Shown here piece by piece: positions 4,540-22,430 of a stretch of DNA of 64,000 nucleotides; the stretch's first letter is position 1, and the number at the start of each line of letters is the position of its first letter. The stretch spans positions 4,464,001 through 4,528,000 of the forward strand of contig JAQOWU010000008.1 in NCBI GenBank assembly GCA_030867685.1, in the 5' to 3' direction. This DNA is from Wickerhamiella versatilis. Taxonomy: Eukaryota. Both the position numbers and the translations under genes were made by a program. The notes below the pieces were generated by a model that had not been told where the DNA came from, did no database searches, and saw only the letters and a list, made by a program, of their open reading frames with translations.

Positions 4540-5592
4540 CTAAAGTGTCCATTTCTGGACCTCTCCGGTTCCCCGGAGAAGGAAGAAGCTAGAATCGTCA
4601 TTAGCTAAGAGGCCGTTCCACATCGAGTGGTCGCCAGCAGTCTTCATGGCACTCCACGAATCTTTCAAAGCAGGCTTGGATAGCGGCTTGGTAACGAGAC
4701 GGACCGCGAAATCGTCACTATCCTTGCGCTGTCCCGGGTGTACATTGGATTGGAAACTTACAACGTGATTGTCTCCAACCTTGACAATTTGGGGCGCTCC
4801 CACTTTGAAGTTGTTGACATCGGGAACATGAACTTGTTGGCGATTTCCCCAGGTCTTGCCCCCATCCGATGACTGGACAGATCCAATATAACTATTATCA
4901 CCATCCAGCGATTCAAAAACCGCAATAAGATTGTTCGCGTTATCGTCATACTGCGCAACACCAATCATTCCGTCGCGGCGGCGGGAGCCATCACCATCAC
5001 TGACAACAATCGGGGGGTTCGACCAGTTCTTGCCTCCATCTGAAGACGTTATCAAGAGATTCTGCTGAACACCTTTATTTAACTCATGTGAATAATAGAG
5101 CTGAATGCTCCCGTCGGACCCTGTTCTTAGGAATGGCTCCCAGTCACCGATTTCCTCGTTATCACTATTGTTGACGACAGCATCCGCCAGATGATTCCAA
5201 TTGGTACCATCGTATTCACTTATGGTAATTCTCCATACCTTATTGTTACCCTGATTTGGTCCATGATTGCGATAAGCAACCAGAGTTTTGCCATCAGGTG
5301 TTTGATAAGGAAAGCCATTGCCCACCTGCTCACCGGGTTCAGCCGAAGCCACACTTCCTGATGGCCACCAAACCGCAGCATCAGAAGATTTGAACACACT
5401 GATCGTGCCAGCACCATTGGTCGCAAGGTAGGAATTATCTTTCAACTTGGTTGCCCGCGGGTAGTTACCACCAGTTGTGATCAGGCCATGAGGAAAAGGC
5501 TGCTGGGTCAACTCCCTTTTTTCCAAAGAGACGGGGAGACCCGTGACCAGGTTTAGAGCTGCTGTGAGCGAAAAAATGTTCAGAAATTTCAT
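4540..5592 (-). CDS. Secreted BNR/Asp-box beta-propeller glycoside hydrolase (GH93/sialidase-like)
   Basis: Start moved to ATG 5592 (MKFLNIFSLTAALNLVTGLPVSLEKR = signal peptide plus Kex2 site). Two Asp boxes (SSDGGKNW, SSDGGKTW); WEPF and RDGM motifs typical of fungal BNR-repeat hydrolases. Confidence 0.8.
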   Translation of the reverse strand: MKFLNIFSLTAALNLVTGLPVSLEKRELTQQPFPHGLITTGGNYPRATKLKDNSYLATNGAGTISVFKSSDAAVWWPSGSVASAEPGEQVGNGFPYQTPDGKTLVAYRNHGPNQGNNKVWRITISEYDGTNWNHLADAVVNNSDNEEIGDWEPFLRTGSDGSIQLYYSHELNKGVQQNLLITSSDGGKNWSNPPIVVSDGDGSRRRDGMIGVAQYDDNANNLIAVFESLDGDNSYIGSVQSSDGGKTWGNRQQVHVPDVNNFKVGAPQIVKVGDNHVVSFQSNVHPGQRKDSDDFAVRLVTKPLSKPALKDSWSAMKTAGDHSMWNGLLANDDSSFFLLRGTGEVQKWTL

Positions 5593-6232: not shown

Positions 6233-7003
6233 CTACAGCTGCTGCAGTTGTGCAGCTACATCGCTAAATTGGTTTTTGTATTTGTTGGCAAACCCCAGCA
6301 CATCGTTCAACTGACTGTTATCACTATGGTCATGTGACGAGAAAGGTGTGATCACCTGAGAAAGGGTATCTAATATTGACGCAGTACTGTTGTCGGCACT
6401 ACCTAATGAGTGGGCGAGATTCCTGAACTGATCGCCCGAGTTACTACCTGAGGTATGCTGGCTGACTTTGGTGAAAATGTCAGACGATTGCAGGAGCCCC
6501 TCTGCATTGGCTGAGGTAGAATTTCCTCCTCCACCAAAGATTCCGCCTAAGATCTTTCCCGCAACATCCTGAATCTCGCCCACGATGTCTGCGGGTAGGG
6601 CCAGAGAGGCGGATGCAATACATTGTACATCATTATTCTGTATGGCCTGCGTCCATCCACCAACATATGCCTTGGCAAAATCGGCCAACTCATTAGTGAC
6701 CTTCTCCAACTCTGGGCCCAGATTGGTTATATCCCCAATCAGGCCAGTCGCACAACCCGCAAGATCTTCGACTATATTTGGGCAGTCTTTGACAATTTCG
6801 GCTGAAAGTTTGGAGATGTCGGGTCCAACACTGGTAATCTCACCGGAAACACTTTGTAATTCCTTAAGGGTAACTTTCGTAACGTCCTGTGCTGCGCCAA
6901 TGATGGCTGCAGCGTCGGTTGGGTTACAATTGCTGGGCGCTCTTTTAACGGGCAGAGCCGCGACAGAGTTCAGGACGAGGCAGTACAGAACGGCTGGAAG
7001 CAT
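6233..7003 (-). CDS. Secreted Cys-patterned amphipathic helical protein, paralog 1 of 4 (function unknown)
   Basis: Signal peptide, LPVKR Kex2 site, mature Cys at 26/74/84/128; clear similarity to 9389..10087. Confidence 0.82.
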   Translation of the reverse strand: MLPAVLYCLVLNSVAALPVKRAPSNCNPTDAAAIIGAAQDVTKVTLKELQSVSGEITSVGPDISKLSAEIVKDCPNIVEDLAGCATGLIGDITNLGPELEKVTNELADFAKAYVGGWTQAIQNNDVQCIASASLALPADIVGEIQDVAGKILGGIFGGGGNSTSANAEGLLQSSDIFTKVSQHTSGSNSGDQFRNLAHSLGSADNSTASILDTLSQVITPFSSHDHSDNSQLNDVLGFANKYKNQFSDVAAQLQQL

Positions 7004-7247
7004 TGGAGGTATTTCTGGTCAACGAAAAGTCAGCCTACCTATTTATATATAGCTTGGTGGTCTTGCATGCATGACATACTGACTACGAAAACCAAACCAG
7101 GGAAACCCTACATTTGCCCTATCCACGCTATACGCGGGTAGGCCCGAAGCGAGGCCTCGAACCAGCAGGAGCCATAGCATAGCTGAGATTGAGATCACCT
7201 AGCGAAAAAAAATATTAGCTGGCTAATTGTGATTATCAATATAGGTA

Positions 7248-7922
7248 TTAAAGCAATGAGCTCAGAGTGCTCTTAAGGTTGCTGAAAGCGGATCCAACGT
7301 CGTCGATTTGAGCTCCAAAAGCATTATTGATGGGAGAAACCGATTTCATGGAGTTAAGTTCATTGACAAGAGGCTGAACTCCGTCGGTGATATTTTGCGA
7401 GAGCGAGGAGATCGGCGACTTTACCTCATTATGCTGTGGCCCCGGAATTTTCGACAAAAGAAGCTTGATTATTTGCTTGACCAGCTGCTCGTCGGCGTCT
7501 AAGAGCTTTTTCAACTCGTCGAGGAATGGCGAGAACAGGGGCTCTAGGTCCTTAAGAGACTGACTTACAAACCCAGCACCGTCCTCCGCGATACAGCCCC
7601 ACGGAACGCCTTCAACGCTAGATACTAAATCGGAGAATAGCCCCGTTCCGTCGCCGACAAGGCCCGTGACGTCACTGAATACGCCACCTGATTGCAAGAG
7701 TTGGACAATGCAGGTACCAACATTGTCGGAGAAGCACGCAGAGTCGCCTGTTGCAATTCCTACGATATCTGCAATATACTTCACAATGTCGGTGATCTGG
7801 GGCAGAGACTTCTGGACGTTATTTTCAACGTCGCCGACGAGCTTCTTGATGGTGTCCTCTGGCGGACAGGAGTTGTCGGCAGCCCTGCACAGAGCAATAC
7901 AAAGAATAGTGAAATATCTCAT
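7248..7922 (-). CDS. Secreted Cys-patterned amphipathic helical protein, paralog 2 of 4
   Basis: Short signal peptide, Cys at 19/63/71/110, 'VPWGC' matching 'VDWNC' of paralog 4. Confidence 0.8.
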   Translation of the reverse strand: MRYFTILCIALCRAADNSCPPEDTIKKLVGDVENNVQKSLPQITDIVKYIADIVGIATGDSACFSDNVGTCIVQLLQSGGVFSDVTGLVGDGTGLFSDLVSSVEGVPWGCIAEDGAGFVSQSLKDLEPLFSPFLDELKKLLDADEQLVKQIIKLLLSKIPGPQHNEVKSPISSLSQNITDGVQPLVNELNSMKSVSPINNAFGAQIDDVGSAFSNLKSTLSSLL

Positions 7923-8436
7923 GAAATCTAGAGACCCGAACGGATTTTTTTACTAATATATTGTCGCTATAAGACTGATTATAACTCAAAAGCTTAGGGT
8001 TTTGCAGATCTTCATCGGCGTTGGACCGATCGGTAATAATAGACCAAATAAATTACGATTCATAATTAGAACCTGTGTCAAATGCGTATTAAATCTTGCT
8101 GCAGTCGCCACTTACATGGACGTTCTGGGTCATGTTGCACATTCCAGTGTCAACTAAGGTAAGGGTTGAGGTACGGGTACAAAGCGCAGATCACATAAAG
8201 TGTTAATTGGGAACACGTGTTGACGGCTGTAACAGGGCGGTTTTCGTATCTTGGAAGGTATCACAGCTGATATAATTCCACGCAACTTATAGATCGAGGG
8301 CCTACCTTGGTGTGGACCCTTCACCCACACGGACCGGGGGCGGTGATCCTTGCTGTCATGTAATGATTCGCAGAATTTATATAATCACCTTTCTGCATAA
8401 CGGCATCTGGCTGCCATCTAATCTTTTCTTTGCAAC

Positions 8437-9159
8437 ATGCTAAGCAATATTGCTCGTTGGAGTCTGTTCGTATCCCTTATTGCCACGACCGCGGTAGCGT
8501 TTCCAGTGGTTGCAAGTGATGAGGTTAAGCGTGATTCCTGCAATGTTATCGGCTCCCTGGGGGGCATCGTCGAACAACTAATAGGTGACCTGAACCAGGT
8601 CGTGCCACTGGTCACTGATATTGGAAAGGATCTTACCACTGTAGCTAACACCCTATTTTCCGATAATGGTTGTGGAACTGCTGTAGTCTCCTGTATCTCG
8701 ACCATCGTAGATGGTGGTGAGACCTGTGGCTCCCTTGCGGCTTGCACATCCTTGATAGGGAACACTGGATTTATTTCAGTCCTTGCCGATGTTGTATCTA
8801 AAGCTTCTCAAGTGGCTGGGGATGCTTTGCAGTTGACCGGAAAAATCCCTGCCTCCTGTGTATCTGACGCTGCAATTTCGGCTGTTTGGCCCGTACTTGA
8901 TTTGACGGTAAAGCAGGTCACGGGATTTGGTAATGGCATCATCCATATTATTTCCTCTGCCGAGAAAAGTCAAATTTCTTTGGCCAACACGGGTTTCAAA
9001 ATATTCGTGGACCAGAGCACTAACATCGTCGAGGATACGGTAGAGATTGCTAAGCCACTTGTCTCTCACGCCCCGTTCTTCAATGCCACTCTGGTCGATT
9101 CTCTGAACGACCTCGAATCCGTTCTTAACACATTGAAGAATGTGACAAACAGTATATAG
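8437..9159 (+). CDS. Secreted Cys-patterned amphipathic helical protein, paralog 3 of 4 (one extra Cys pair)
   Basis: Signal peptide, EVKR Kex2 site, Cys at 35/79/86/97/103/141. Confidence 0.8.
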   Translation: MLSNIARWSLFVSLIATTAVAFPVVASDEVKRDSCNVIGSLGGIVEQLIGDLNQVVPLVTDIGKDLTTVANTLFSDNGCGTAVVSCISTIVDGGETCGSLAACTSLIGNTGFISVLADVVSKASQVAGDALQLTGKIPASCVSDAAISAVWPVLDLTVKQVTGFGNGIIHIISSAEKSQISLANTGFKIFVDQSTNIVEDTVEIAKPLVSHAPFFNATLVDSLNDLESVLNTLKNVTNSI

Positions 9160-9388
9160 TCAATCCATAATTTGTAATAGTTTTGTAACTTGAATACATT
9201 CCTTTGACGAATTTCCTGCTAGCTTAACTAGCTAAGTTGGCGAAGTTTCTGCATGCCTGTGCGTGATGATTGCCTTCAACCATGCCGAAACTGGCTGGCC
9301 TGGGCTACTGTTGTACATATTCTTGGAAACTATGGTGGTACAAGCGGGTAAATCAATAAAGATTACGGCATTCCTAAACAAATACAGT

Positions 9389-10087
9389 TTACAACAGCTT
9401 TTGAGCCGCAGCACTAAGCGAAGAACTCTGGCTTTCAAGCGGTCCAATAAAAGAATCAAGCGGCGTTCCATGTCCACCAGAGCTGAGGGGTTTCAAGAAG
9501 TCATTAAGAACGGTATCAATTATGTTCAGCGTCTGATTGTCATTCCCGTGCAGGGTCCTTGCTGTATCCTTGACCTGGTCGGTGGGATTGACTGTCTTTA
9601 GTGCCGACACTAAATTAGAGCTTTGCTCAAGATTGAATCCAGCTGGAATGAGGGCACCAAGTATGACCTTTGCCTCGTCGACCCAGGCCGAAACTTGACT
9701 GGCCGGGTCACCAATCGCGCCGTTGATTCCCTGGCCAACACAGTTCCAATCGACTTCGCTCACACCCTGGCTGAACTCATTCCAAAGAGCACCCAGATCT
9801 TTTGAAATTTCTTCAAAGTCAACGCTATATTTCTGATCGGTCGTTACTTTCTGGAAACAATCCGCGAGATCAGTTATCGGGCAGTCTTGACCTAGCAACT
9901 GGGTGATTCTCGTGATCTTTGCAACAAGGTCATTCGCAGGCCCAGCAGCATTTTTCCAGTGCTTGTTCACATCGGAAGTGACTTGCTGAATCGCCTGCTG
10001 AGGGTTGCAATCAGCACGTTTCAATGGCAGTGCCCACGATGATGAAAGCAGCAGAGAGACAAGAATAAGACCGCGTGTCTGTGCCAT
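9389..10087 (-). CDS. Secreted Cys-patterned amphipathic helical protein, paralog 4 of 4
   Basis: Signal peptide, LPLKR Kex2 site, Cys at 27/69/77/116. Confidence 0.82.
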   Translation of the reverse strand: MAQTRGLILVSLLLSSSWALPLKRADCNPQQAIQQVTSDVNKHWKNAAGPANDLVAKITRITQLLGQDCPITDLADCFQKVTTDQKYSVDFEEISKDLGALWNEFSQGVSEVDWNCVGQGINGAIGDPASQVSAWVDEAKVILGALIPAGFNLEQSSNLVSALKTVNPTDQVKDTARTLHGNDNQTLNIIDTVLNDFLKPLSSGGHGTPLDSFIGPLESQSSSLSAAAQKLL

Positions 10088-11089
10088 ATTGCTCTATGCA
10101 AGGTGGGCTATTGATGGGGAGTTAACGCTTTTATATGTCCTAATCAACGAATCTCAAGCCCTAAGCCTAATCTGGCACCCTGACATTAATTCGTCCGCCG
10201 CAGAACGACAGCGCGGTGGGCGCCGCACCTTTGCATACATTAAAGAGCCGATTGAAACACGAAAATCAGCAACTCGCCTGGGCAATAAACTATTCAAATT
10301 GCTGGTCACGAAAGACGCCAAATTACTATTGTAGCGTGGATTATTAATGCGGAGGAGTCTAACACCGAGGTATGTCGAAAAACCCTACGATTAGCCCATC
10401 TCACCTTGACATTCCTGTGGCAGACCAAGTTCAGTTCCGGTTGTGGTTCGGATTCTGGCCTCCACAACTAAATATGCTGCTTCGCTGCGAAGTTTCAATA
10501 CGATACGGGTTAGGGTCGGTTGTGCCCGCGGCTCTGCAGGCCCATAAACATTATGCCATATGCACTGAGTAAACAGGGTTCGAGTGCATGCATGGCTGCA
10601 ATACCAGCCCGCATGTACCTAGCTGGCCAGGGCACTGTGGTGGAGGAACCGCGTTGAGCCGCAAATACCTGAGTATGAAAGCGACTACAGCAGCCACAGT
10701 GTGACGTAGATATACCAGTGCTATAGTTAGCAATAATCAATTTTTTTGATGCACAAATAGCAACTACACGTAGTCTAAGTCTACTGCCTCCAGTAGTAAC
10801 ACCCCTACCCTATAATGCTAGCCTTTGCAGCAAAGACTCCCACAATAGCGGCTCAGACACTATACTACCGTGCTAGGCTAAATAATATGAAGTTAAGGGG
10901 ATGCTCTAACCAAGCAAGTTAAGTAGACTCTTTTCAGTACGGTGGTTCCATTGGTCCCTAGGCTTAGGGTCGCGCTATCCCGCACTGCGACATGTGACTA
11001 AGATTTAGAAATGCCAGGGTACGGTTTGTTCCTGAAAAGCGTTTGCATAAATACATGTCTGATAGACAATTTGGGCCCTCCATTCAGAC

Positions 11090-12184
11090 ATGGTCAGCAT
11101 CTCCTGCTTGTTTTCCACTTTGTTAGCCGCTAGTGCGGCTCCCCTTATCGAAAAACGCGATGGTGACGGCACGATTGGCGATCAGATGGCCAAGCTTTAC
11201 GTTCCCGAGGACGTGATTCAACAGCTTTACGAATACAGTCCACTAAATGACATTCTGAGCGCTGTTTGGGCGCCTAAAGGCTCACAGTCAGCTGCTCCTG
11301 CTTTTTACAATCTCCTAAACGATCAGAATGCCGCAGTCCCCGCTGTTGACGCCAACGCACAGAACAGCGATGGTAACGCACCCTCGATCAATGAGCTTAT
11401 GGGTGCAGCCTCGGCGGCTGAGCAAATGAATTTTTACAGCGCCGGTGGTAATAATCACCTACAACCATACAACCTTCCTAACACGAACAAGCAGCTCACC
11501 GGCTATGACACTGGTACGGGAATGAAGGCGCGTGTTTTCAAGACTGGCGCTGATAAATTGATCATCTCGTTCTCCGGCTGGAATCCTTTGGATCTTCCTG
11601 TGGATCTTGGCACATATACTCAGGATGAGGGTAGTGTTAGTGGTAAGATCAACGAGGGTCAGAAGAATGCCGTTGCATTTGCACGACTCGTTTACTTGGT
11701 GGCCAAACAGGACGGTAAAACGCAACAAGATATCTATGTCTCAGGCCATTCAACAGGCGCTGGCGAGGCCCAATACGTCGCTCAGCAGCTTGGGTTCAGT
11801 GGAGTCGCCTTTGAAGGTACTGGAATTCCCGAAGACTCCAAGGCTGTCGGTAAAGGCTCCAACTTCATAAGCTTCGTCAACTATGGTGATGTCTGGGCAA
11901 GCTATGCCTCTGATGTCCCCGACAACCCTGTCGACGTTATTGGAGGTCCTAAGAAGGGAACCCTTCCACATTACGGCAAGCTTATGATGGTAGGTGATGA
12001 AGGCCATGCAAAATTGCAGCGTGGGGTGCTTCAATTGTTTGGGTGGACAAAAGCCATTCCTGAAGGCGCACCAATTACTTTCCTCATTGACTTCATCAAT
12101 GAACAGGGCCTTGGTTACCATAATATGAATGAAGATGGTAATCTCAAACCTTATTTGGATAAGAAGGTTGGCCAAGCCGTGTAA
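11090..12184 (+). CDS. Secreted alpha/beta-hydrolase, lipase class 3 / Mbeg1-like
   Basis: Signal peptide plus IEKR; 'LIISFSG' oxyanion strand; nucleophile elbow VSGHSTGAG; 'VNYGDV' catalytic Asp region; C-terminal His (GYHNM). Confidence 0.75.
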   Translation: MVSISCLFSTLLAASAAPLIEKRDGDGTIGDQMAKLYVPEDVIQQLYEYSPLNDILSAVWAPKGSQSAAPAFYNLLNDQNAAVPAVDANAQNSDGNAPSINELMGAASAAEQMNFYSAGGNNHLQPYNLPNTNKQLTGYDTGTGMKARVFKTGADKLIISFSGWNPLDLPVDLGTYTQDEGSVSGKINEGQKNAVAFARLVYLVAKQDGKTQQDIYVSGHSTGAGEAQYVAQQLGFSGVAFEGTGIPEDSKAVGKGSNFISFVNYGDVWASYASDVPDNPVDVIGGPKKGTLPHYGKLMMVGDEGHAKLQRGVLQLFGWTKAIPEGAPITFLIDFINEQGLGYHNMNEDGNLKPYLDKKVGQAV

Positions 12185-13030
12185 GGTTAATGGTATCGCT
12201 AGGCCTAATGGTAACAATGATTTGGAATGAGCACACATCAATTGCGTGGCCGTCGTGTAATACCTCCATAGAGTAATAATATACATTTTAAATATCGACA
12301 GAAACTGTCCACAGATATTGCCTACGTTATTGTTCATAAAGGGAATAGTTGAATTAGCTTCAGACTACGAGGGGTGAACGACACCATCCAGGTATTTCAT
12401 GAGACATTTCGATATTCACTTCAAGACCCCCCACAAGGATTCATAACATGATAGATTTCTGACATCCCAGCTACTGCTGGCAGCCTCATATACTCTTCTT
12501 TGGCAATAACCAGTTTCCTTCGACAAATTTCGTAGCTGTCCTCATAAACCAAAAAATACTTTTTCACACAGCCACCGAAATCCTTACCCACTTTGGCTAT
12601 GCAGGACGGCCCCATAATCCTCCAGAGTAAAGCCACGCGGATTCATGCCGCATCCATCGCGATAAGTATTTTGGTAGCTATTGTTTACCACGTTTGCTTT
12701 ATCTATAGAACGGCATATAACTCAGTGCCACGGCATAAGATGTTTGTGCATAAAACACTTCCCAAAGTACCCAGATTTATCCTGTTGACAGGCCAACGAG
12801 CACTAGAGGCACAGGCTTTTCCTGCAGGATTACTGTTCAAGCGCTCGGGCTCGCGGCGATTAGGTAGTTGTGTTACTAACAAGTTAGTGAGCTGCAGCGG
12901 GAAGTGGCCCTACGCTCAGACCTAGATAAGCTGCTAAGAAACGAAAAGCATATGAGCATTAGATGTAGTGCCAATCATACGCGACAATACGTTAGCTAGA
13001 GGAGGTTAACTCCACTGTTACTTTGTACCA

Positions 13031-13050
13031 GTGGGCTATCTTGCATTGCC
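13031..13050 (-). repeat. Dispersed repeat, right-half copy
   Basis: Reverse complement GGCAATGCAAGATAGCCCAC. Confidence 0.7.
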
Positions 13051-13158
13051 CCGGGAATACCCGCTCGCTCCACTCTAGAGCACTGCTATAGTAAATTGTA
13101 ATGATATTTGATATAATCTTTTAATATAATAATAATTATAATACCCCATACCCGCCCA

Positions 13159-13339
13159 ACCTGGAAAAGAATCCGTTTGGATGGTAGTAAACGTGCTAAC
13201 TTGCCTTGCGGGCTCTTTGCATTGTGCATATGTGCCGAGTGCTGGACTTGCGTTGTTATTTTACTCCGCGGCCCGTCGCGAACAATCGACTTTCGATAGC
13301 GTAACCCAGCTTGGGCCAAACGCGCCTTCTTTTCCCGGT
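13159..13339 (-). ncRNA. Putative structured RNA element immediately 3' of the DIP1984-family gene
   Basis: In the sense strand, ACCGGGAAAAGAAGGCGCGTTTGG (13339-13316) can pair with CCAAACGGATTCTTTTCCAGGT (13180-13159): 3+9+7 bp. It encloses 135 nt with small hairpins and periodic GCA triplets, and is GC-rich next to a very AT-rich flank. Confidence 0.55.
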
Positions 13340-13356
13340 CACCTAAAATCAGCTAC

Positions 13357-13806
13357 TTAAAGATCGACTGTCCAGTTGATCTCCTGCAGATGGACCTCGA
13401 GTTCCCTGAGTTGTTTGGAATACCGATCCGTCTGCTTTTGAAGCTCTGAAGCATCCAGAGTGGGCTGCCTTTTGATTTCCGATCTAGTAATCATTCTACC
13501 ATCAACCGTTGCAACAGTGGCAAATTCGCGTAATGAGCAAACCGTCCTGCGAAGAATATCCCGCCGGGCCAATGCATCGGTCAGAGTTGCTCCCTCGAAC
13601 TTTGTTCTCTCGTTACTATGATTTATTGCCGCTATCAGCTCCATCAACTGTCGCAATTCGTCTTTGTACTGACTTAACAGCTTTTGTGGATCCTCCGAAG
13701 GTTTATCACCTTCCTGTACCACTAAGTTACGCCTTATACGGGTTGAGAGCTGATTTAAACTCTTCTCAAGATCACTTCGGCATAGCAGTGCCTCACCAAG
13801 CTTCAT
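13357..13806 (-). CDS. DIP1984-family ('septicolysin'-annotated) bacterial-type helical protein
   Basis: Family signature throughout: MKLGEALLCRSDL...VQEGDKPSEDP...INHSN...LARRD...RSEIK...LQKQTD.YSKQLRELE..LQEINWTVDL; 149 aa, intronless. Confidence 0.88.
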   Translation of the reverse strand: MKLGEALLCRSDLEKSLNQLSTRIRRNLVVQEGDKPSEDPQKLLSQYKDELRQLMELIAAINHSNERTKFEGATLTDALARRDILRRTVCSLREFATVATVDGRMITRSEIKRQPTLDASELQKQTDRYSKQLRELEVHLQEINWTVDL

Positions 13807-14681
13807 CTCCCGATGATACAGCTGAAATCTTTTCCTGAAATATTAGACCTCCGTGCTTTGCTGTGCTGTAATGATTTTTGCAGATCCAGTCACTTAAATA
13901 GCTCAATGTTCAAAAATTAGTCATTTAATGAGCCACAGTGACTGCTTGGGTGTCGTGAGATCAGAAAGAAATAGCCCGCCACTAGGCCCATCAAGAGAGC
14001 CACTTTTAGCCCATCCAGCCTATTTTTTGGCGCTCAGTTAGCTAGTAATTCTGAGCCCTCGAATAATACTTGTTCTGCCCGTTTGTTTGTTTGATCTAAC
14101 AATAGATATTCATCATGACTGCAGGACGCAATGTGAGATTATTGCATATATTGTTACTAAGCCATATTCAAATGATGGGGAAGGTACACTTGCTAGACCG
14201 AGTAGGTAAATATCGGTTCTTTTTTATCGCCGCTCTCAATGGTGGCTTAGGCTGTCTTTTTTGGGGGGGCACATCATGAAACAAGATTCATTAAAGTACA
14301 ATGCTAAATTAGACATTATATACATCTTAGGTACACATTCATAACCACAATGCACTAGGTATTAGCATTTCAATCATTATCGGTACTGAATATAAGCTCT
14401 GGGAATACCAGAACTTGTGTTTTTGGATAACGGTAAGAAGATCTATTCGCCTGTCAAGGTAGGAGATTACCAAACGGGTATAATCCAGGGACTAATACAG
14501 GCCCGTAGAAAGATAATGATGATAAAAATCAATTAAATATAGATTGTTCTTTTCTATGCCCATAATCGCATCTCAATGATATCCCACTGGAGGTGCTTCT
14601 CAATAAGGGACTTTAGCACTGCTGCTATAGGATTTTTTGCCTGTAAAATAATTGAATTCTTAAACATATGAATAATTAATA

Positions 14682-15332
14682 CTATAGGAGGAAGGCGGCT
14701 GCAGCTACAATCGCGAGAGCAGAACCAAGCTGTGTCGCAACCCCACCATTGGCTTCTGGCACCGGCGAGGTCGGTAGCAAAGGAGTCGTTGACGGCAATG
14801 CGGTGATATTTGTACCATTCAGCGAGCTAGTTTGATTTGCTACGGTAACTTCTGATACAACTCTAACTTTGAGAGGATGAGAGTTTGGTATTTTTGTAGC
14901 CAGCAATTCGTAACTCTTCTTACTATACCCATAGGCATCCTTTAGACCTTTTGCGGCATATAGTGTACTACTCCCATTCACTGTCAGATAATTGTCTTTC
15001 ACAAGGACAGGAGTGCCACCAGCGACACCAACAGAGAGAGGATAGAAGTTAATACCTCCCGTAGCGGGCACAGTCAGGTTCCACTTTTTCACCTCAGGAC
15101 CATTCTCACTATCGACTGACACAGGCAAATAAAACTCATTATAGTCTTCGGCATAGGTCAGAACCGAACCCTTTTGTGACAGAAATACCACATTAATACC
15201 CGCACCCTCGTGAAGATATGTCAGGCCCTTATTGCTAAGTTCTGTGTTACTAGACTCAGTAACAAATGATACGTTATAATCAGCTAAAGCAACAGATGCA
15301 ATGGTCAAGAATCTGATTGACGTTGATTTCAT
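14682..15332 (-). CDS. GPI-anchored cell-wall protein, Pga30/Pga31/Rhd3-like
   Basis: Start moved to ATG 15332 (MKSTSIRFLTIASVALA signal); HEGAGIN motif; S/T/P stalk; ANGG plus hydrophobic GPI tail. Confidence 0.78.
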   Translation of the reverse strand: MKSTSIRFLTIASVALADYNVSFVTESSNTELSNKGLTYLHEGAGINVVFLSQKGSVLTYAEDYNEFYLPVSVDSENGPEVKKWNLTVPATGGINFYPLSVGVAGGTPVLVKDNYLTVNGSSTLYAAKGLKDAYGYSKKSYELLATKIPNSHPLKVRVVSEVTVANQTSSLNGTNITALPSTTPLLPTSPVPEANGGVATQLGSALAIVAAAAFLL

Positions 15333-16155
15333 TGGTCTTGGGACTAAGTCACGAAGCGCTACTATATGGCAGTTGGGTGGGCTAGGGTATTGGTTTAAGG
15401 TCGAGAGACTATTAGAGTGAAACAACTTTCCTATAGTTCCTGAATAGGGTTTAAGCTAAGAGTATCTATATATTATCTGATGGTGTGACGAGGATCTAAT
15501 TTAGGAACACCAGAGATGTGCTTTATATTACGAATGGAACGAGGAGGACGATATGCTCCGAGGAAATCTGCTGATAACCTGATTCAAATGAGTGCTTAAG
15601 ATTGGTATATGCTTTATAAAATTTGCCTAGCTGCTTTTCAATTAGTCTAAAAGGTCAAACAGCACAATTAAATACCGTAACATGGAGTTGTCTACCATAG
15701 GCGTAGTGCAAGCTTAAATTTAGCAGTTTAAGTCATAGAATTAGCTAGCTATCTCGCGTAGAAATCCTCATTATAGGGCTATTGCTGGATCATTTGACCT
15801 ACTTGCCTATGTCTATCACCAAATAACACCCTTATTATAAGATGACAAATGTAGATGAAACGATGTCACCTAATCTAAGCTTGGGTATTAGTTATCCGAT
15901 AATGAGCCTGGAGTAACTATCAATATATAGATGTATCACCTAATATAACTTCTTTTCTTACCGTTATTCCCCTAGAAAATTGAAGGTGGTCATACTTGAG
16001 CTCGATGGGTGCAATTTCCGCTCACTTAATTGCTCCTTACACTTACAGGAGTAAAGTTAGATATCTTTGTACATGAACACGGGTAATTCTACGTATTTCT
16101 TGATGATTATCCCTCAATAAATTATTTTATTTTTCAGTCATACCTTTACAATCGA

Positions 16156-18438
16156 CTAACCGGTCAAACCAACTGCACCAGCACGGCCTCCACATCCACC
16201 TCCACATTTGCTACCTGATGAGCAGCCGCCCATTGACGAACAACTCGCATATCCGCCAACCGAACCACCACCACACTCACCTGTATTACAAGCCCCAGCA
16301 CTTATTCTCCCACTACAGGTTCCGCTCACACAATTTCCAACCGCTCCTGGTGAGAAATTAGCACATGCTGGGTTTTTTGCATACATCGAATTATTGTTCG
16401 AAATATCGATGTCACTCATATAAGGTGCGAAAAATGGCAAGTACACGGGCAGAATACCCCACCTCATTAACTCAGCGTCGTAAGATACCCCTTCATGTTT
16501 TGTTTTGGAATCTTTTAGGTTTTCAATAGCAATGTCAATACCGCGTTTTTTGAGTCGTCGTGAAATCTTCTGGAATTGGTTCTTAAGGCGTAACTGGCGG
16601 TACTCGTCTCTGGAAACCCCTTTTGGCAATATCGAATTGTGGGAGGATATGTGAACTCCTCTATCAGGATTTTTCTCAGAGTGGAGCGCCAGTTCATTGT
16701 CGATGGCTTTACTGGATGCTGTAAATTTGAATAATTTCGGCTCAGACGAGGGCAAGGTTGATTCATGAACAGCCTCGCAATACCAGCAAGTGCACGTGCT
16801 GTAGAGGTGACCGCCAGTGAGCCTTTGATACTCCTTACTGGTCCACTCAAACGAATCAGATAGCTTCCCCTCTTCAACTTTGTCATCGTGGTTGATGAGA
16901 CTATCAGTATGGCTTTCACAAAACAGGTAATACCTAAAAGGAGACAACTGATGAGTATGCCATGCAAGATCAACATCCAATGTAGGCACTGCCATTCTCC
17001 CTGCATTACGAGCTATGATCTCCATGAAAATCTTATATTTGGCAATCAAGCGGGCCATTGTTTTATCGACGGCAGGTGAGTTCAGCCAGTCTAATTCATC
17101 CATCTTGGACACAAACGAACCTTGTCGCAGAACTGCGCCAACAAGATCGAGGGCAAATGGCGATGAATTCTCCCAGTAGCGAGACATCATTTTACGAATG
17201 GACATGCGTCTGAGCTGTGCAATCCTCTGCGGAGTCCTATGATAACCTCCCACGAACCTTAGTGTATCACGATCCTGGGATATCTCCATAAATAAAGTTC
17301 TCACGTTGTTCATGGTTAAACGAGGATCCTTGACAAAATCAGTTACTGCCATCATTTTTTCATAGTTAAAGCCCTTGGTTATATAATGGTTCGCAAAGGT
17401 GTGGACTGGAAGCGTCGGTGTAGGCTGAATTAATCCAGAAGAAGACAAAAGCGTACCAGGCATCGGGATGTTTTTAGCAAACAGAGCTTTTACATCATCC
17501 CGGAACTTGGCAATCCGTAATATATCATGCGTTACGACATAAGAGCAATTTGGGCAGCTGTATTCAAGTTTTCCATCTGCAAATCCCTTTCCATCCTTGA
17601 ATGGATGAATAAGGTTACCCGGGCCTTTCGAAGTGGACCAAGGAATTTGAAGTTCCGACCGGCAACAAGGGCATGCAAGAACTTTGAACGGGAAGTCGTC
17701 CTCATTATCCCACGATCTGCCGGTCTGGTTTTCAAAGTTGGCAGCTGTTTTGGGGGGCGGAGCATAATCGAATGTTGGTCTAATACAGTCATTAATTTGT
17801 GCCCATGGAAACCCTGCAGACCAGAACCATACGCGCTGATATCTCAAGCAATCTTCGAGAAAGTCATGGGGATTCAACATGTAAGAGTGCCACACCATAA
17901 TAACGTCAATGGGGGGTAGAGTCTCAGGGGTCCATGGATGCCGTGCCTGTCTCTCCGTAATCGAGAAGTCTGACCTCTCGATATCCCTGACTGTGAGCTG
18001 CTGGACATTTGACTGTATTCTTTTGTGGGGAACACATTTATCCAACCAGGTTTCAAAGCGATCCACGGCGCGACTGACGTACAATTCCCACCTCTTCTCC
18101 CGAAGCAGCGCCAACGACTGTTTACGCATTTCATCATTAGATTCTGCTATTGCGTTATCCCAAAGGTCAAAAAGTCCGTCTCGAGATGAAATCACATTCC
18201 GTAGATCTGAAAAGACGCTCATAAGTTTAAGATGAGCTATACATTCGTCAACGTAGACAGTCTCTTTCTTCATTTTGCTGTGAGATACTGACCCATCGTT
18301 AGGATAAAATTTCAAAGGGCGCATCCTGGTTGCTTCCGTATATGACGGAGGAGGTGTGTCTTTAGCGGAAATGCTTTTGTGGAACATTGTCCTGTTAGAT
18401 GACAAAGTGTCTCTATCACACTGACAACAGGCAAACAT
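16156..18438 (-). CDS. Glycine-rich-domain protein (GRDP/DUF1399 family)
   Basis: LPPIDVIMVWHSYMLNP and VPTLDVDLAWHTHQLSP...HDD motifs, CPCC/CPNC, and a Cys/Gly-rich tail. Alternative start at Met18 (18387). Confidence 0.85.
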   Translation of the reverse strand: MFACCQCDRDTLSSNRTMFHKSISAKDTPPPSYTEATRMRPLKFYPNDGSVSHSKMKKETVYVDECIAHLKLMSVFSDLRNVISSRDGLFDLWDNAIAESNDEMRKQSLALLREKRWELYVSRAVDRFETWLDKCVPHKRIQSNVQQLTVRDIERSDFSITERQARHPWTPETLPPIDVIMVWHSYMLNPHDFLEDCLRYQRVWFWSAGFPWAQINDCIRPTFDYAPPPKTAANFENQTGRSWDNEDDFPFKVLACPCCRSELQIPWSTSKGPGNLIHPFKDGKGFADGKLEYSCPNCSYVVTHDILRIAKFRDDVKALFAKNIPMPGTLLSSSGLIQPTPTLPVHTFANHYITKGFNYEKMMAVTDFVKDPRLTMNNVRTLFMEISQDRDTLRFVGGYHRTPQRIAQLRRMSIRKMMSRYWENSSPFALDLVGAVLRQGSFVSKMDELDWLNSPAVDKTMARLIAKYKIFMEIIARNAGRMAVPTLDVDLAWHTHQLSPFRYYLFCESHTDSLINHDDKVEEGKLSDSFEWTSKEYQRLTGGHLYSTCTCWYCEAVHESTLPSSEPKLFKFTASSKAIDNELALHSEKNPDRGVHISSHNSILPKGVSRDEYRQLRLKNQFQKISRRLKKRGIDIAIENLKDSKTKHEGVSYDAELMRWGILPVYLPFFAPYMSDIDISNNNSMYAKNPACANFSPGAVGNCVSGTCSGRISAGACNTGECGGGSVGGYASCSSMGGCSSGSKCGGGCGGRAGAVGLTG

Positions 18439-18964
18439 ATGCTTACGTTTCAGGTTTACAATACGGCACGATATGTCACATCATGTTGGGAGGTGAGTTG
18501 TTGAGTTGGTGACCACTAAATTGAACTCCCTCTAAGCTACATGGAAGTTCCTTCTATTCTGATTGTGGCAAAAAGTAAGCTTTTTCGAACTTTGCATATC
18601 TGGGTTCCCCAGACCCCTGAAGCAAGCCCTTTCCCAGGAAAAGACAGGTCTGAGACTGTTTAGATAATCAACATAGTGCATTCATCATGAAAGATACCAC
18701 TTAACATATTCGTATGATACGATAATACCAGAGGAGATGGAATAAATCATGTTAACTGCATGTAACCAGCACTAGAAGCAAGTGATCTGTTATATGTGGC
18801 AGGTAAAGTCCAAGCAAGCTTCGACGGGCCGGGAATTACGTGACGTCACACAATGGGATGACGTATGTACTTCGACGTAGGTTCAATTCAATGGTTTGCC
18901 TCTATGACCTTTATGTGCTTATAATATGCCAATTCTTGTCTAAATACTTTTTCAAGAGTAGTAC

Positions 18965-20674
18965 TTAACTGTTACTACAAACCGACAAGTCGGCGCGACG
19001 CGAATAATTTTCTGCTTGCTCTTTTACCTGCCATTGCCAGGCAGGAACCTCCTCTCCCCTGGGTTTATAGCTAATTGTAAATTCTTGTTTTTCTCGGTGG
19101 AGTTGGAGCGTCAGTATTCCATCCTGTTCTCCCTGAATTGCATCCTGCGGAACTGGCTTGACTATCTTGTCGCCATTGCGCACCCCTGCCCTCTCTGCGG
19201 CAGAACGGGAAATAAGGCCGCGAACAATGCGAGGGCTTTCGGCTAGCACAGCCGGCTCAAATCCTAGTTCATATCGACGTAGCGGTTTGCTTACTCTTTC
19301 GAATCGAGACCCAAATGCATCGCTGGATGGAAGTGGTACTGATCCTTTCAGCATATCATCCACGCATTTAACCGCATTATCCCCCAAGTGAGCCTTTAAA
19401 GCATTTTTCCAATCGACTAGAGTAATATTTGGCTTCTTTTTGTGCAGTCCCAGCATTTCGTATATCAGTGTATCGAGTGATTTCTTGCCGTTACTGGATT
19501 TTCGCATCGCATCATCAACAGTCGCGAAATAGAAAAACCCGCGGTCATAGGGGATGGTTCGTATTCGGGTGTCTTTCCAGAAGCCCTTGTTCACCTCACT
19601 GTTCGGTATATCGGCGAATACATTTGTATAGTAGCGTCCTGCATAGTAGTTGAGTGCATTCAGAAAAGCATCTGACTCAATCATATTAAAGCGAAAAGGA
19701 AGGGCTAATTCGTAAAACACTGCAGATCCTTCTTCAAACCACTCAGTTGTATCATTGTCACCAGGGCTACTGAGCGTGGGCTGGAACGTGTGGAACATCT
19801 CATGCGCAAGGGTAAGTTTCAATTCTGCAGGATTATTACCATGATCTGTATCGTACGTCTGCACAAAAGAGTCTAGTAAAGCTACCCCACCCCCTGCATT
19901 GACCTTATTACGTCGAACAAACACACAGTACCCTGGAGACCCTCCACCAAAAAAGACCTTATAATGCTCATAAAGTTTTTTGGTCCAGCTTAACAATTCT
20001 GTTGGACTAAATGGTGTGCTTCCCTGCCAAGCGGAACAGAAGCCTGAACCATCTGGCAATTCGGGATATACGCCTATATTACCACCCATGAAGTAGCATG
20101 AAGTTAGTTCCTCCATATCAACCCAGCGACCGCCTTTTTCCAAAATACTGCATAATCCATGAGCCCGAGACGAGATGGAACTCAGGTCCCAGTGCACAAC
20201 CACTTTGTACGTACCCGCGGGCGGATGAATCAAGAAGTTACCAGCGCATCCCGAGACTGCACCCTCCTCGGCACGTAGGTCAAGAGGAGGAGCCGCACCT
20301 CGAGGCGAAATCTCATTAGTTGGCACAATATTATAGCTAAAATGTAGCCGCCCGGATATATTACGTGAAGGGTACCAGTAGCGGCATCCTGTGTCTTCAC
20401 CCTCATCGAAATAAGAGAGTTTCAAATGACCAGCATCATCACTAGCATCAATTTCATGCACCTGCATGGCACATGTTGGTGTATTGATGTTCCAATGGGA
20501 TAGCTCGAGCAAACGCGAAAGTCCCTTAGCAGCGTTAAAAGGAATCTTTTGTTCCACGGTAATACGACTCGGCCCCTGTTGGGGGCACGGCTCAATCCTT
20601 ATCAGGATCTCATAAAGATCTTCTTGCAGTGTGTGTGCAGATCCATTGCTCTCAATGATCGTCCAAGGCTCCAT
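18965..20674 (-). CDS. M61-like zinc metallo-aminopeptidase with C-terminal PDZ-like domain
   Basis: LAHEMFH (HExxH), downstream WFEEG..VFY third ligand, 'PYDRGF' motif, 'VRGLISRSAAERAGVRNGDKI' PDZ-like tail; no signal peptide. Confidence 0.8.
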   Translation of the reverse strand: MEPWTIIESNGSAHTLQEDLYEILIRIEPCPQQGPSRITVEQKIPFNAAKGLSRLLELSHWNINTPTCAMQVHEIDASDDAGHLKLSYFDEGEDTGCRYWYPSRNISGRLHFSYNIVPTNEISPRGAAPPLDLRAEEGAVSGCAGNFLIHPPAGTYKVVVHWDLSSISSRAHGLCSILEKGGRWVDMEELTSCYFMGGNIGVYPELPDGSGFCSAWQGSTPFSPTELLSWTKKLYEHYKVFFGGGSPGYCVFVRRNKVNAGGGVALLDSFVQTYDTDHGNNPAELKLTLAHEMFHTFQPTLSSPGDNDTTEWFEEGSAVFYELALPFRFNMIESDAFLNALNYYAGRYYTNVFADIPNSEVNKGFWKDTRIRTIPYDRGFFYFATVDDAMRKSSNGKKSLDTLIYEMLGLHKKKPNITLVDWKNALKAHLGDNAVKCVDDMLKGSVPLPSSDAFGSRFERVSKPLRRYELGFEPAVLAESPRIVRGLISRSAAERAGVRNGDKIVKPVPQDAIQGEQDGILTLQLHREKQEFTISYKPRGEEVPAWQWQVKEQAENYSRRADLSVCSNS

Positions 20675-21410
20675 ATTATCGGTATCGTATGACGTAAGGA
20701 AATTACCATACTAGTTATACCAGAATCTGTTTGCCAACCAGACTTTCAGCCACAGATATATATAGATGTATTGGAACTTAAGTGAATTATATTCAAATGG
20801 TAGCAGGGTTTTGTATAATTCGTAATCTTCAATTCGCACGTCGAAGCCTTTTAAAATAATGTCGCATTTTGTTAGTTCATTGACAGATATAAGGCTGCTG
20901 GACGGTTGCTTGATCATCCACGAGGATCCAGTGGTAGTATTAGCCTCGAGTTCGAGACTCTTGTCTTACCGAGGGCGGTGTTTAAGAGTTCTGGTGCTGA
21001 TATCCCCACGGCACTACCTGAGACTGGTAGTGAAGTGGGCTAAGAGAGGGAACGCTACCACCGGCAAATATTTGGGAAGCATAGAGGCACCTATCCTGCA
21101 GTACGTCAGAGGATATAAGAAGCTGTGGTGTAAGATAACAGTAATAATAACTAGCTATCGGTTAACATGTAGTGAGGTTAGGGTACGTTTTAAAGTTTCC
21201 CTTTATAGGCCCATACACAACAGTCCAGTGTGTGTAATGAGACAGGAAGATCAGTTACTCTTCGGGAAAGAAGCCATTCATCATGGCGAGAAACGACATG
21301 TATACATACATGCATACCGGATGAAGTAGTGTTTACTTACCCGGCTGGGCGGTGTTTTATTCGATAGATATATCTCTTAATAATGGTATGCTAGTATACT
21401 GAATGCGTAT

Positions 21411-22430
21411 CTAGTTCAAACGACCGTAATTCCTGATTCCTTTCTCATTAGGTGGGGGATACCTGCCCTCCTCTACTCCCTGAGCAAGGTATCTGTGTGA
21501 TTTGACCAGACATGCCCAAAGATGATCACCAATTGTTGTTGCGGTGTAATTGGCACTCTCAGCATCAAATTGTGGTAGTGGCTTAACCTCGTTAGTATGA
21601 TTGCGCGAGAAAAAGAGGGGGAATGAATATCGTTCCTCATTCACCTTACGCACTCGGTGCGTCGTGGCGACAAATTTACCGGCTGTCATGAGTTCAAGCG
21701 CATCCCCAATATTCACAACGAATGTACCGGGTATCTGTGGCACATCGATCCATTCATGCTTATCGTTCATCACTTCCAGTCCCTCCTGCAGGGTGAGTAG
21801 AATGGTGAAGGCCTCGTAATCGGTGTGGGGGCTCATACCCAGCGAATCCGTATCCTCGTCATTTTGAGGATAATGATTTATTCGGAAGAAACATGGAGGA
21901 AGCTGAAATTCATTCGTGAATGACTCCTCAGTGAGTCCCAGTGCCAGAGCAAAACCGCGCCATAAATACTGGCCCAAGCATCGGGCTTCCTCGAAATACT
22001 TACTGACTCTCTCCTTGAACTGGGGGATATCAGGCCAATTGACAGGACCCATTAGCGGGAATTTCTGATTGCGAACAACTGGGTCACTAGGGTCCAAGTC
22101 CTCACTGGTGTGGAACGTTTCCTTGAGATCAGGCACTTCGTTGCCGAATTCCTCGCCACCTTTGGGGATATATCCGTTGTGAAAGCCATTCAATCCAATT
22201 AAATAATGCTTCCTATATTCCTCTGGCATAGAGAAAAACTCCTTTGCCGCAGTCAGGAGCCCTTTCATCACATCCTGGTGAATGTGGTGTCCCTTTATGA
22301 TAAAGAAGCCCACATTACGAGCTGCATCTCCGATCTCAGAAGCAACAGACATACGCTTTTCCTTGTTATTTCCATAAAGATCACCTATATCAATGATAGG
22401 TATCGAATCAAAATTCTTTCGAACAGACAT
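21411..22430 (-). CDS. 2-oxoglutarate/Fe(II) dioxygenase, isopenicillin-N-synthase-like family
   Basis: DIOX_N start (IPIIDIG...VGFF.IKGH), HTD...H iron triad, VNIGD, HRV, RYS co-substrate motif. Confidence 0.92.
   Translation of the reverse strand: MSVRKNFDSIPIIDIGDLYGNNKEKRMSVASEIGDAARNVGFFIIKGHHIHQDVMKGLLTAAKEFFSMPEEYRKHYLIGLNGFHNGYIPKGGEEFGNEVPDLKETFHTSEDLDPSDPVVRNQKFPLMGPVNWPDIPQFKERVSKYFEEARCLGQYLWRGFALALGLTEESFTNEFQLPPCFFRINHYPQNDEDTDSLGMSPHTDYEAFTILLTLQEGLEVMNDKHEWIDVPQIPGTFVVNIGDALELMTAGKFVATTHRVRKVNEERYSFPLFFSRNHTNEVKPLPQFDAESANYTATTIGDHLWACLVKSHRYLAQGVEEGRYPPPNEKGIRNYGRLN

Follow-up and report, generated by a model that had tools for sequence, protein, structure and literature searches.

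A bacterial DIP1984-family gene in the yeast Wickerhamiella versatilis appears to have kept the structured RNA that follows it in bacteria

The described systems closest to the one studied here bring a protein and an RNA together. In Ro60 (Rsr)-Y RNA, a protein gene lies next to a closed-stem RNA, and the pair handles damaged RNA. TRAP is a beta-sheet ring that reads evenly spaced (G/U)AG triplets in single-stranded RNA, and Fanzor with its omega RNA, from TnpB, is a precedent for a bacterial protein-RNA pair in eukaryotes. Here we analyse a stretch of 64,000 nucleotides (nt) of the yeast Wickerhamiella versatilis (assembly GCA_030867685.1, contig JAQOWU010000008.1, positions 4,464,001 to 4,528,000 of the forward strand; hereafter the window), which carries an intact gene of the bacterial DIP1984 family and, directly behind it, a structured non-coding RNA. 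We propose that the two were transferred as one module of protein plus RNA, which probably forms a ribonucleoprotein still under selection; its binding and function are predicted from sequence comparison.

Retention of a bacterial RNA by a eukaryote has few parallels to draw on. The TPP (thiamine pyrophosphate) riboswitch with THIC is reported as a bacterial gene kept together with an RNA element in a eukaryote, and the same source states for Rfam 10 that 99% of families are confined to one domain of life and calls RNA repertoires refractory to interdomain transfer (PMC3486863). Unlike the TPP/THIC and Fanzor cases, the DIP1984 RNA is neither a catalogued riboswitch nor a guide, and no link to a transposon or organelle was seen. 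Bacterial protein genes, on the other hand, are common in Wickerhamiella/Starmerella yeasts: 211 putative ones are reported for C. versatilis (PMC5897096, whose supplement 3 gives gene numbers only), and close to 600 for three such species, mostly enzymes (PMC13376923), in keeping with the remark of an initial annotation of this locus that most bacterial genes kept by such yeasts are enzymes. Like these xenologs, ours is a bacterial gene without introns that lies in the midst of yeast genes, probably came from acetic acid bacteria and belongs to a small genome from a fermented-food habitat; it differs in joining a protein with an RNA, whereas the published sets, as their text describes them, are protein-coding and mostly enzymes (PMC5897096; PMC13376923). 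The words non-coding, noncoding, ncRNA and UTR do not occur in the main text of PMC13376923, and names of the DIP1984 family were not found in the 13 searched of its 16 supplementary files. In the literature searched, with most subscription papers outside it, we found no paper on the DIP1984 RNA or on the yeast DIP1984 gene, and nothing on the gene names of the Komagataella relatives treated below or on horizontal gene transfer from Acetobacter to Komagataella; for DIP1984 itself the literature yielded a plasmid annotation. Transfer of the DIP1984 protein is of a known kind; the retention of a structured bacterial RNA in a eukaryote appears new.

The module consists of two features:

13357..13806, minus strand: DIP1984/DUF6847-family gene of bacterial origin; product of 149 amino acids (aa), four helices, soluble
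13142..13346, minus strand: structured non-coding RNA, homologous to the element 3' of bacterial DIP1984 genes, detected with a covariance model (CM) and a hidden Markov model (HMM)

The initial annotation had read a full-length, intronless DIP1984 gene of 149 aa from the letters and proposed an HMM search as a check. That search agrees with it: the product of this intronless open reading frame (ORF) scores 164.4 bits against NF038048 (DIP1984_fam, cut-off 70), over profile positions 1-149 of 149, and 155.3 bits against PF20935 (DUF6847, cut-off 27). Across 323 other members, 38 positions reach at least 80% conservation; the yeast protein keeps 34 of them, and the four changes are conservative; the invariant residues of the family are Arg, Asn, Gln, Glu and Trp. 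The protein matches PDB entry 3KDQ from Corynebacterium diphtheriae in sequence (E 6e-21), and its AlphaFold model (pLDDT 94.3; four helices, with one low-confidence loop at about residues 101-110) superposes on that structure with a TM score of 0.95, a root-mean-square deviation of 1.4 and Z 16.3 over 149 residues. With the next-best structure at Z 9.8, 3KDQ, a crystal entry of four chains, is the sole clear structural match. The yeast copy thus has the full-length profile, fold and downstream RNA of bacterial members such as 3KDQ, and differs from them by its place in a eukaryotic chromosome and its yeast codon usage. It is the single copy above cut-off in its own 9.88-Mb, 8-contig genome. 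The family is overwhelmingly bacterial, with a size of 5,566 among 8,000 candidates scored, and is carried by 370 plasmid records, 341 of them from Acinetobacter.

The RNA, of 205 nt, begins 11 nt past the stop codon on the same strand. Regions downstream of bacterial DIP1984 loci were cut, 27 of them were aligned without the yeast sequence, and a CM was built from this alignment. Run over the 64-kb window with filters off, this bacteria-only model places 13142-13346 (minus strand) first at 44.3 bits (E 3.9e-12, model positions 1-203), the second-best match reaching 8.1 bits. A bacteria-only sequence HMM has the same interval as its sole match (E 7e-6) and finds the yeast RNA at E 2.3e-4 when the three Acetobacter rows are removed. 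When 55 loci were tested, with eight duplicate loci left out, the CM matched an RNA at 49 of 51 DIP1984-family loci and at none of three non-family loci; of the two loci missed, one lies at a contig end and the other is a gene fragment, where a weak match spans 49 nt. Outside the training set, 22 of 24 family loci are matched (three are near-copies of training rows), and non-training bacterial copies score 20.8-49.9 bits once near-duplicates are excluded. The RNA always lies just 3' of the DIP1984 gene and on its strand in the loci examined. No Rfam match was obtained for the yeast RNA region or at the RNA of nine bacterial loci, and a DNA search of the own genome, which diverged copies could escape, found no second copy of the RNA. 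The initial annotation had described a lone helical protein as unusual cargo. The helical part holds; the protein is not alone, as the conserved 205-nt structured RNA follows it, outside the interval then annotated. Most xenologs of such yeasts are indeed enzymes, but the peculiarity of a bacterial gene there was overstated: bacterial genes are common in such yeasts, and Komagataella also has the family. The underlying observation is real, and its interpretation is partly supported.

The yeast RNA and the stretch directly after it can be resolved into the following parts:

13160..13338, minus strand: closing stem P1, 13327-13338 with 13160-13171, 11 of 12 pairs, covarying across family copies
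13174..13326, minus strand: conserved 4x2 internal loop (RGCG / GA) and stem P2, 13316-13322 with 13174-13180
13183..13343, minus strand: long-range pairing of the near-invariant 5' GGT (13340-13343) with an ACC motif (13183-13186)
13298..13317, minus strand: first H-type pseudoknot, with stem P3, 13313-13317 with 13303-13307, 5 base pairs (bp)
13309-13311 with 13298-13300, minus strand: stem P4 of the first pseudoknot, 3 bp, from sequence and CM alignment
13244..13282, minus strand: second H-type pseudoknot, with stem P5, 13277-13282 with 13265-13270, 6 bp
13271-13274 (in the 6-nt P5 loop) with 13244-13247, minus strand: stem P6
13187..13251, minus strand: eight GCA(C/A) motifs spaced by 9, 7, 8, 7, 11, 5 and 8 nt, a candidate protein-binding track
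13144..13157, minus strand: conserved 3' G-rich tail with three G-runs, invariant alignment columns
13086..13141, minus strand: AT-rich stretch directly after the RNA, a candidate yeast 3'-end signal

In the fitted alignment, which is biased towards the assumed structure, 88.7% of cells are paired, and the covariation score is 0.494 against 0.169 for shuffled alignments (none of 500 shuffles was as high; slid controls stay at or below 0.09). RNAalifold applied to a plain MAFFT alignment recovers P1, P2 and P6 with two-sided changes. P2 is 99.2% paired over 53 rows, and two of its five core pairs are changed on both sides relative to Acetobacter senegalensis. The stem letters of P5 are specific to the yeast, and a P5-type stem with at least four Watson-Crick pairs occurs in 21 of 28 rows, against 2.4 expected by shuffling. 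The GGT/ACC pairing is unproven by covariation because its letters barely vary. Compared with the bacterial RNA, the yeast copy has a longer GCA(C/A) track, by about 16 nt relative to Acetobacter, and an AT-rich stretch in place of the terminator, the Acetobacter counterpart of 13086-13141 being an intrinsic-terminator-like hairpin (L002 6677-6696). The stems and both pseudoknots are nonetheless retained in the yeast through altered letters, with one stem shortened. As a side observation, tandem DIP1984-RNA modules about 2 kb apart occur in two Bacillota genomes (L047/L062 and L048/L061), and the second RNA there lacks the G-rich tail.

The RNA stands out from its surroundings. It is identical to that of A. 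senegalensis at 124 of 184 aligned letters (67%, z 11.5), whereas the 200 nt upstream of the gene and the 200 nt beyond the RNA give z values of 1.3 and 0.7. Its GC content of 0.53, against 0.41 +/- 0.05, is reached by 1 of 106 intergenic windows. In the coding sequence (CDS), first and second codon positions agree with A. senegalensis at 196 of 298 sites, near the identity level of the RNA, third positions at 44 of 149, and four-fold sites at 9 of 40, which is saturation. The codon log-ratio of the yeast CDS is +0.27, with 26 window genes (scored in-sample) at 0.11-0.33 and the Acetobacter copy at -0.24; GC content at third codon positions (GC3) is likewise yeast-like, 0.48 against 0.68. Codon usage and GC3 that are already yeast-like indicate long residence. 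The homology, the integration, the amelioration of the CDS and the retention of RNA sequence and stems are held with high confidence, and the best reading of these sequence comparisons is that the RNA has been kept by selection and not by recency. The protein itself differs from representative P0043 at 1 of 149 residues, against 97 of 1,813 for four neighbour proteins whose contigs share the same longest length (38,757) and so appear to be linked to it (Fisher p 0.006, given this inferred linkage).

Among 1,705 representatives (E <=0.001), the best non-self match of the yeast protein is P0075, a member of the Acetobacter tropicalis/senegalensis cluster, at 52% identity and 152 bits; the two that follow reach 131.6 and 119. 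Against 48 bacterial RNA copies, the three best matches of the yeast RNA are of A. tropicalis/senegalensis type with z of 11-13, the next reaching 5.7. Because the best RNA and the best protein matches fall in the same Acetobacter group, gene and RNA would have arrived together. We propose that the DIP1984 gene and the RNA directly behind it entered the yeast from an acetic acid bacterium near A. senegalensis/tropicalis, that the time since then has sufficed to rewrite the codons, and that selection has kept both parts. The family is patchy among such donors, occurring in 6 of 401 genomes of the bacterial family and 4 of 57 of the genus, and two of those four are broken. At these broken genes (L042 and L043), one of which is split in two frames while the other matches only the first 46 profile positions, the Acetobacter RNAs, at L042 1213-1412 and L043 1274-1473, score 145-148 bits as training rows.

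The route of the transfer is less settled, since the family is also found in Komagataella. K. phaffii, K. kurtzmanii and K. pastoris carry a 160-aa member with 42% identity to the yeast protein, and PAS_chr4_0042 matches the family at 135 bits. It is, like the gene studied here, a member of a bacterial-type family in a fungus, distinguished by a 10-residue insert and by changes at P36 and P40. DIP1984 is thus not unique to W. versatilis among fungi, and the gene could be old and vertically inherited from an ancestor shared with Komagataella, or passed from yeast to yeast, instead of having come directly from Acetobacter. An LG+G4 tree of 80 rows joins the yeast to Komagataella at 86/86, and both to Acetobacter at 87/95; a mixture-model tree of 70 rows has the yeast beside the Acetobacter set (62/98), with Komagataella in another part of the tree. 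Of 300 bootstrap trees, 171 contain a group of yeast plus Acetobacter set, and 289 do when Komagataella and representative P0211 are allowed inside; yeast, Komagataella and P0211 form a group in 114. A 330-row FastTree, on weak branches, places yeast and Komagataella together away from Acetobacter. A donor phylogeny, which the initial annotation had suggested, joins the yeast to Acetobacter in two analyses and not in a third; trees of so short a protein are not decisive, and the support for Acetobacter is moderate. The yeast protein is nearer to Acetobacter (52%) than to Komagataella (42%), and its RNA is specifically Acetobacter-like. We consider descent from a shared ancestor or passage between yeasts a minority possibility, albeit one to be taken seriously; it touches the route only and is compatible with retention of the RNA. 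P0211 itself sits on a very long branch, often groups with yeast and Komagataella, and is possibly another fungal copy.

With arrival from near Acetobacter as the preferred route, we turn to what the module may do. Gene and RNA would be transcribed together by RNA polymerase II, the RNA forming part of the 3' untranslated region (UTR) of one transcript. Run X20, whose status as RNA is a guess, gives a hint of this in one contig of 1,022 nt that has UTR-like margins:

12863..13879, strand not readable from contigs: extent of the X20 contig holding ORF and RNA

The contigs of this run give no strand, ends or level; most of its remaining contigs coincide with ORFs, and 8 of the 30 bins hold no contig. 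Of 20 listed runs, mostly food-fermentation metagenomes and 7 of them flagged as possible sources, 14 contain at least half of the words of 12000-15400, and none of the listed runs recorded as RNA carries that stretch.

The protein is predicted to self-assemble through its long helices. Conserved Arg, Asn and Gln and the flexible RSEI loop may let its subunits bind the regularly spaced GCA(C/A) motifs in the single-stranded track, with the pseudoknotted core as the scaffold of a ribonucleoprotein. The four chains of 3KDQ and the evenly spaced single-stranded motifs suit an oligomer with one motif per subunit. We infer a ribonucleoprotein because, from phylum to phylum, the gene is found with the RNA and with no constant third gene: in a scan of 96 of 138 listed ORFs from 30 bacterial loci no common partner gene appeared, RtcB with RlaP being found at one locus, toxin-antitoxin genes at two and holC at two. 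The combination of one transcript, an oligomer on the GCA(C/A) motifs and a pseudoknotted scaffold is, on balance, what we expect, and by the same sequence comparisons the yeast, a eukaryote, seems still to make use of an RNA-protein pair of bacterial origin.

Two of the systems introduced above offer comparisons for such a particle. TRAP is a works-like analogy, an oligomer on short, even repeats; DIP1984 is helical, and for it a ring is hypothetical and the binding predicted. The likeness to Ro60-Y RNA consists of a protein gene adjoining a closed-stem RNA that bears a tRNA-like T-loop in many bacteria, and of RtcB and RlaP at locus L006. DIP1984 differs in having no TROVE/vWA domain and no Y RNA/YrlA match in Rfam, in its pseudoknots and motif track, and in the yeast copy being without the T-loop. 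At L006 (Erysipelotrichaceae; 6707-10381), the DIP1984-RNA module is followed by RtcB, RlaP, a Schlafen/AlbA protein and two tRNA genes.

Viral decay-resistant RNAs provide an analogy for a 5' knot that blocks decay. More speculatively, the knot around the 5' end of the DIP1984 RNA might stall 5'-3' decay and so free the RNA from the mRNA, and the particle might hold or protect damaged RNA under stress, as Ro60-Y RNA does; argued by analogy, this release and this role are doubtful. That a doubly pseudoknotted 200-nt RNA and a helical oligomer were transplanted whole into a yeast nucleus and are still assembling and working, the RNA being set free from the 3' end of its mRNA to act on host RNA or stress physiology without bacterial partners, is a tentative proposal that we lean slightly against.

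Several observations weigh against a ribonucleoprotein under selection. In the RNA, P1 has one mismatch, P4 has 3 bp where bacteria have 4-5, and the T-loop hairpin that lies 3' of P5 in bacteria is deleted; this hairpin is also absent from bacterial copies L066, L050, L014 and L069 and is thus optional in bacteria. The nested minimum free energy of the yeast RNA is no better than that of shuffles (z -0.28), as expected of a pseudoknotted RNA, and lends no support in itself. RtcB was not found in the own genome, which is not proof of absence, and it stands beside 1 of the 30 loci scanned, so that the RNA-repair context is thin. The RNAs beside the broken genes of L042 and L043 imply that the RNA can outlast the protein, and P0002, a probable yeast relative with 88% identity to the yeast protein, implies that the protein can drift. 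The selection argument draws on one yeast RNA sequence; the bacterial donor is unsampled, and some compensatory changes may predate the transfer. Expression is read from the single run X20, of guessed RNA status.

A reading that dispenses with a free particle would make the RNA a purely cis-acting 3' element, concerned with stability, decay block or 3'-end formation, or would have the protein bind only its own mRNA as feedback, with no outside target. The constant position of the RNA, immediately 3' of the gene and on its strand, the contig that spans both, the lack of a third conserved partner in 30 neighbourhoods and the AT-rich stretch directly after the RNA all fit this. A pure cis element has little reason, however, to keep pseudoknots, an internal loop, a motif track and a G-tail, and it is unlikely to have kept the whole RNA because the decay and termination machines of bacteria and yeast differ; the RNA moreover persists beside a broken gene in two Acetobacter genomes. 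We regard the cis-only alternative as unlikely.

The RNA might instead be an undecayed passenger of a recent transfer from an unsampled bacterium, with only the protein, or neither part, selected in the yeast. A closest protein identity of 52% leaves room for such a donor, and parts of the yeast RNA are lost or shortened. The long residence implied by codon usage and GC3 (0.48 against 0.68) tells against recency, and a passenger would hardly keep 67% identity and a GC content of 0.53 where adjoining non-coding stretches show no similarity to Acetobacter. This makes a passenger RNA quite improbable.

A module of protein and RNA kept by selection has consequences beyond this locus. Gene-transfer surveys of these yeasts count proteins, and the retained RNA suggests that non-coding cargo has been missed. 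The module would need neither a bacterial partner nor the T-loop, and this limits what a family of thousands of members is likely to do. The gene is single-copy in a harmless yeast, and is present in Acetobacter, which makes its function directly testable.

The DIP1984 family is also widely mislabelled as a toxin. UniRef names its members Septicolysin, and the label recurs in papers (PMC5559437, PMC13141974), where Acinetobacter plasmids and Malassezia are among its bearers; a 'septicolysin-like' transfer into Malassezia is in print (bioRxiv 2020.01.28.923367; PMC12239588), the gene being a putative DIP1984-family member in a fungus. That the yeast protein is a pore-forming toxin against competitors is nevertheless very improbable: it is a 149-aa, all-helical, soluble protein without a hydrophobic segment (best 19-residue window 0.65, grand average of hydropathy -0.66, N-terminus not hydrophobic), and its only clear structural match is 3KDQ. 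Hydropathy reveals no secretion signal or membrane-inserting segment, no dedicated signal-peptide predictor having been applied. The initial annotation, too, had called the label one without firm function, and neither domain, hydropathy nor structure lends it support. The cytolysin domains PF01289 and PF17440, which belong to proteins of about 500 aa, are absent from the 149-aa protein at E 0.1, and the same library found both in a 525-aa ORF at L005. This intact ORF (Clostridium; L005 2653-4227) encodes a thiol-activated cytolysin and lies 1.5 kb upstream of a DIP1984 gene; a neighbour of this type is a possible source of the label.

Bacterial contamination or misassembly, which an overwhelmingly bacterial family might suggest, has a negligible probability and is ruled out by an independent contig of 28,312 nt in run X19 (organism A, 9.4 Mb, from other study P9, not flagged as a possible source) that runs across both junctions, and the yeast-like codon usage and best bacterial identity of only 52% point the same way. 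This contig is about 95% identical to the window over 9000-12931 and over 13064-21000; the 132 nt in between (12931-13064) are replaced there and touch neither the gene nor the RNA. Contigs were compared in this way for 4 of the 20 listed runs. Together with the NF038048 match, this contig upholds the view of the initial annotation that a non-enzymatic gene of a bacterial family sits in a yeast chromosome.

Two genes outside the module flank it:

11090..12184, plus strand: secreted lipase-like gene, by sequence reading
14682..15332, minus strand: gene like those for glycosylphosphatidylinositol (GPI)-anchored wall proteins, by sequence reading

The product of the first has a hydrophobic N-terminus, after which come KR and a lipase-like GHSTG motif, but no Pfam match; that of the second begins with a signal-like segment, ends in a hydrophobic C-tail and matches DUF7907 weakly (E 0.006). 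The initial annotation had named them a Kex2-processed secreted protein and a GPI wall protein; the lipase-like and GPI-like features are there, and the Kex2 and GPI labels are readings of the letters. The window is otherwise rich in intronless fungal-type genes, and a zinc transporter at 30525-31766 has its best named matches in yeasts. In runs X9, X11 and X20, some contigs match the 11090-12184 gene over short parts only, which suggests paralogues. Over 9000-21000, X9 and X11 contain two haplotypes about 5% apart, from a hybrid or a mixed population; the minor one matches organism A and has about a quarter to a third of the depth.

Elsewhere in the window, 6233-10087 encodes four adjacent secreted proteins of 224-256 aa that contain Cys and look helical, and none of them has a significant match to a Pfam or NCBIfam family; similar Cys-paired repeats recur in a GPI-like protein of 1,572 aa at 34223-38941. 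Further genes are possibly of bacterial type: an HExxH/PDZ M61-like peptidase (18965-20674), a 2-oxoglutarate (2OG)-Fe(II) oxygenase (21411-22430), a short-chain dehydrogenase/reductase near PRK08177 (52024-52734) and a secreted BNR-repeat protein (4540-5592). The own genome also has three PDC/Aro10/IPDC-like genes, of interest because the Wickerhamiella/Starmerella clade is marked by loss of native PDC1/ADH1 and their replacement from bacteria, and, at L017 940-2592, an acetolactate synthase that scores 762.6 bits against the bacterial equivalog PRK08322 (cut-off 509) and is likely a further xenolog.

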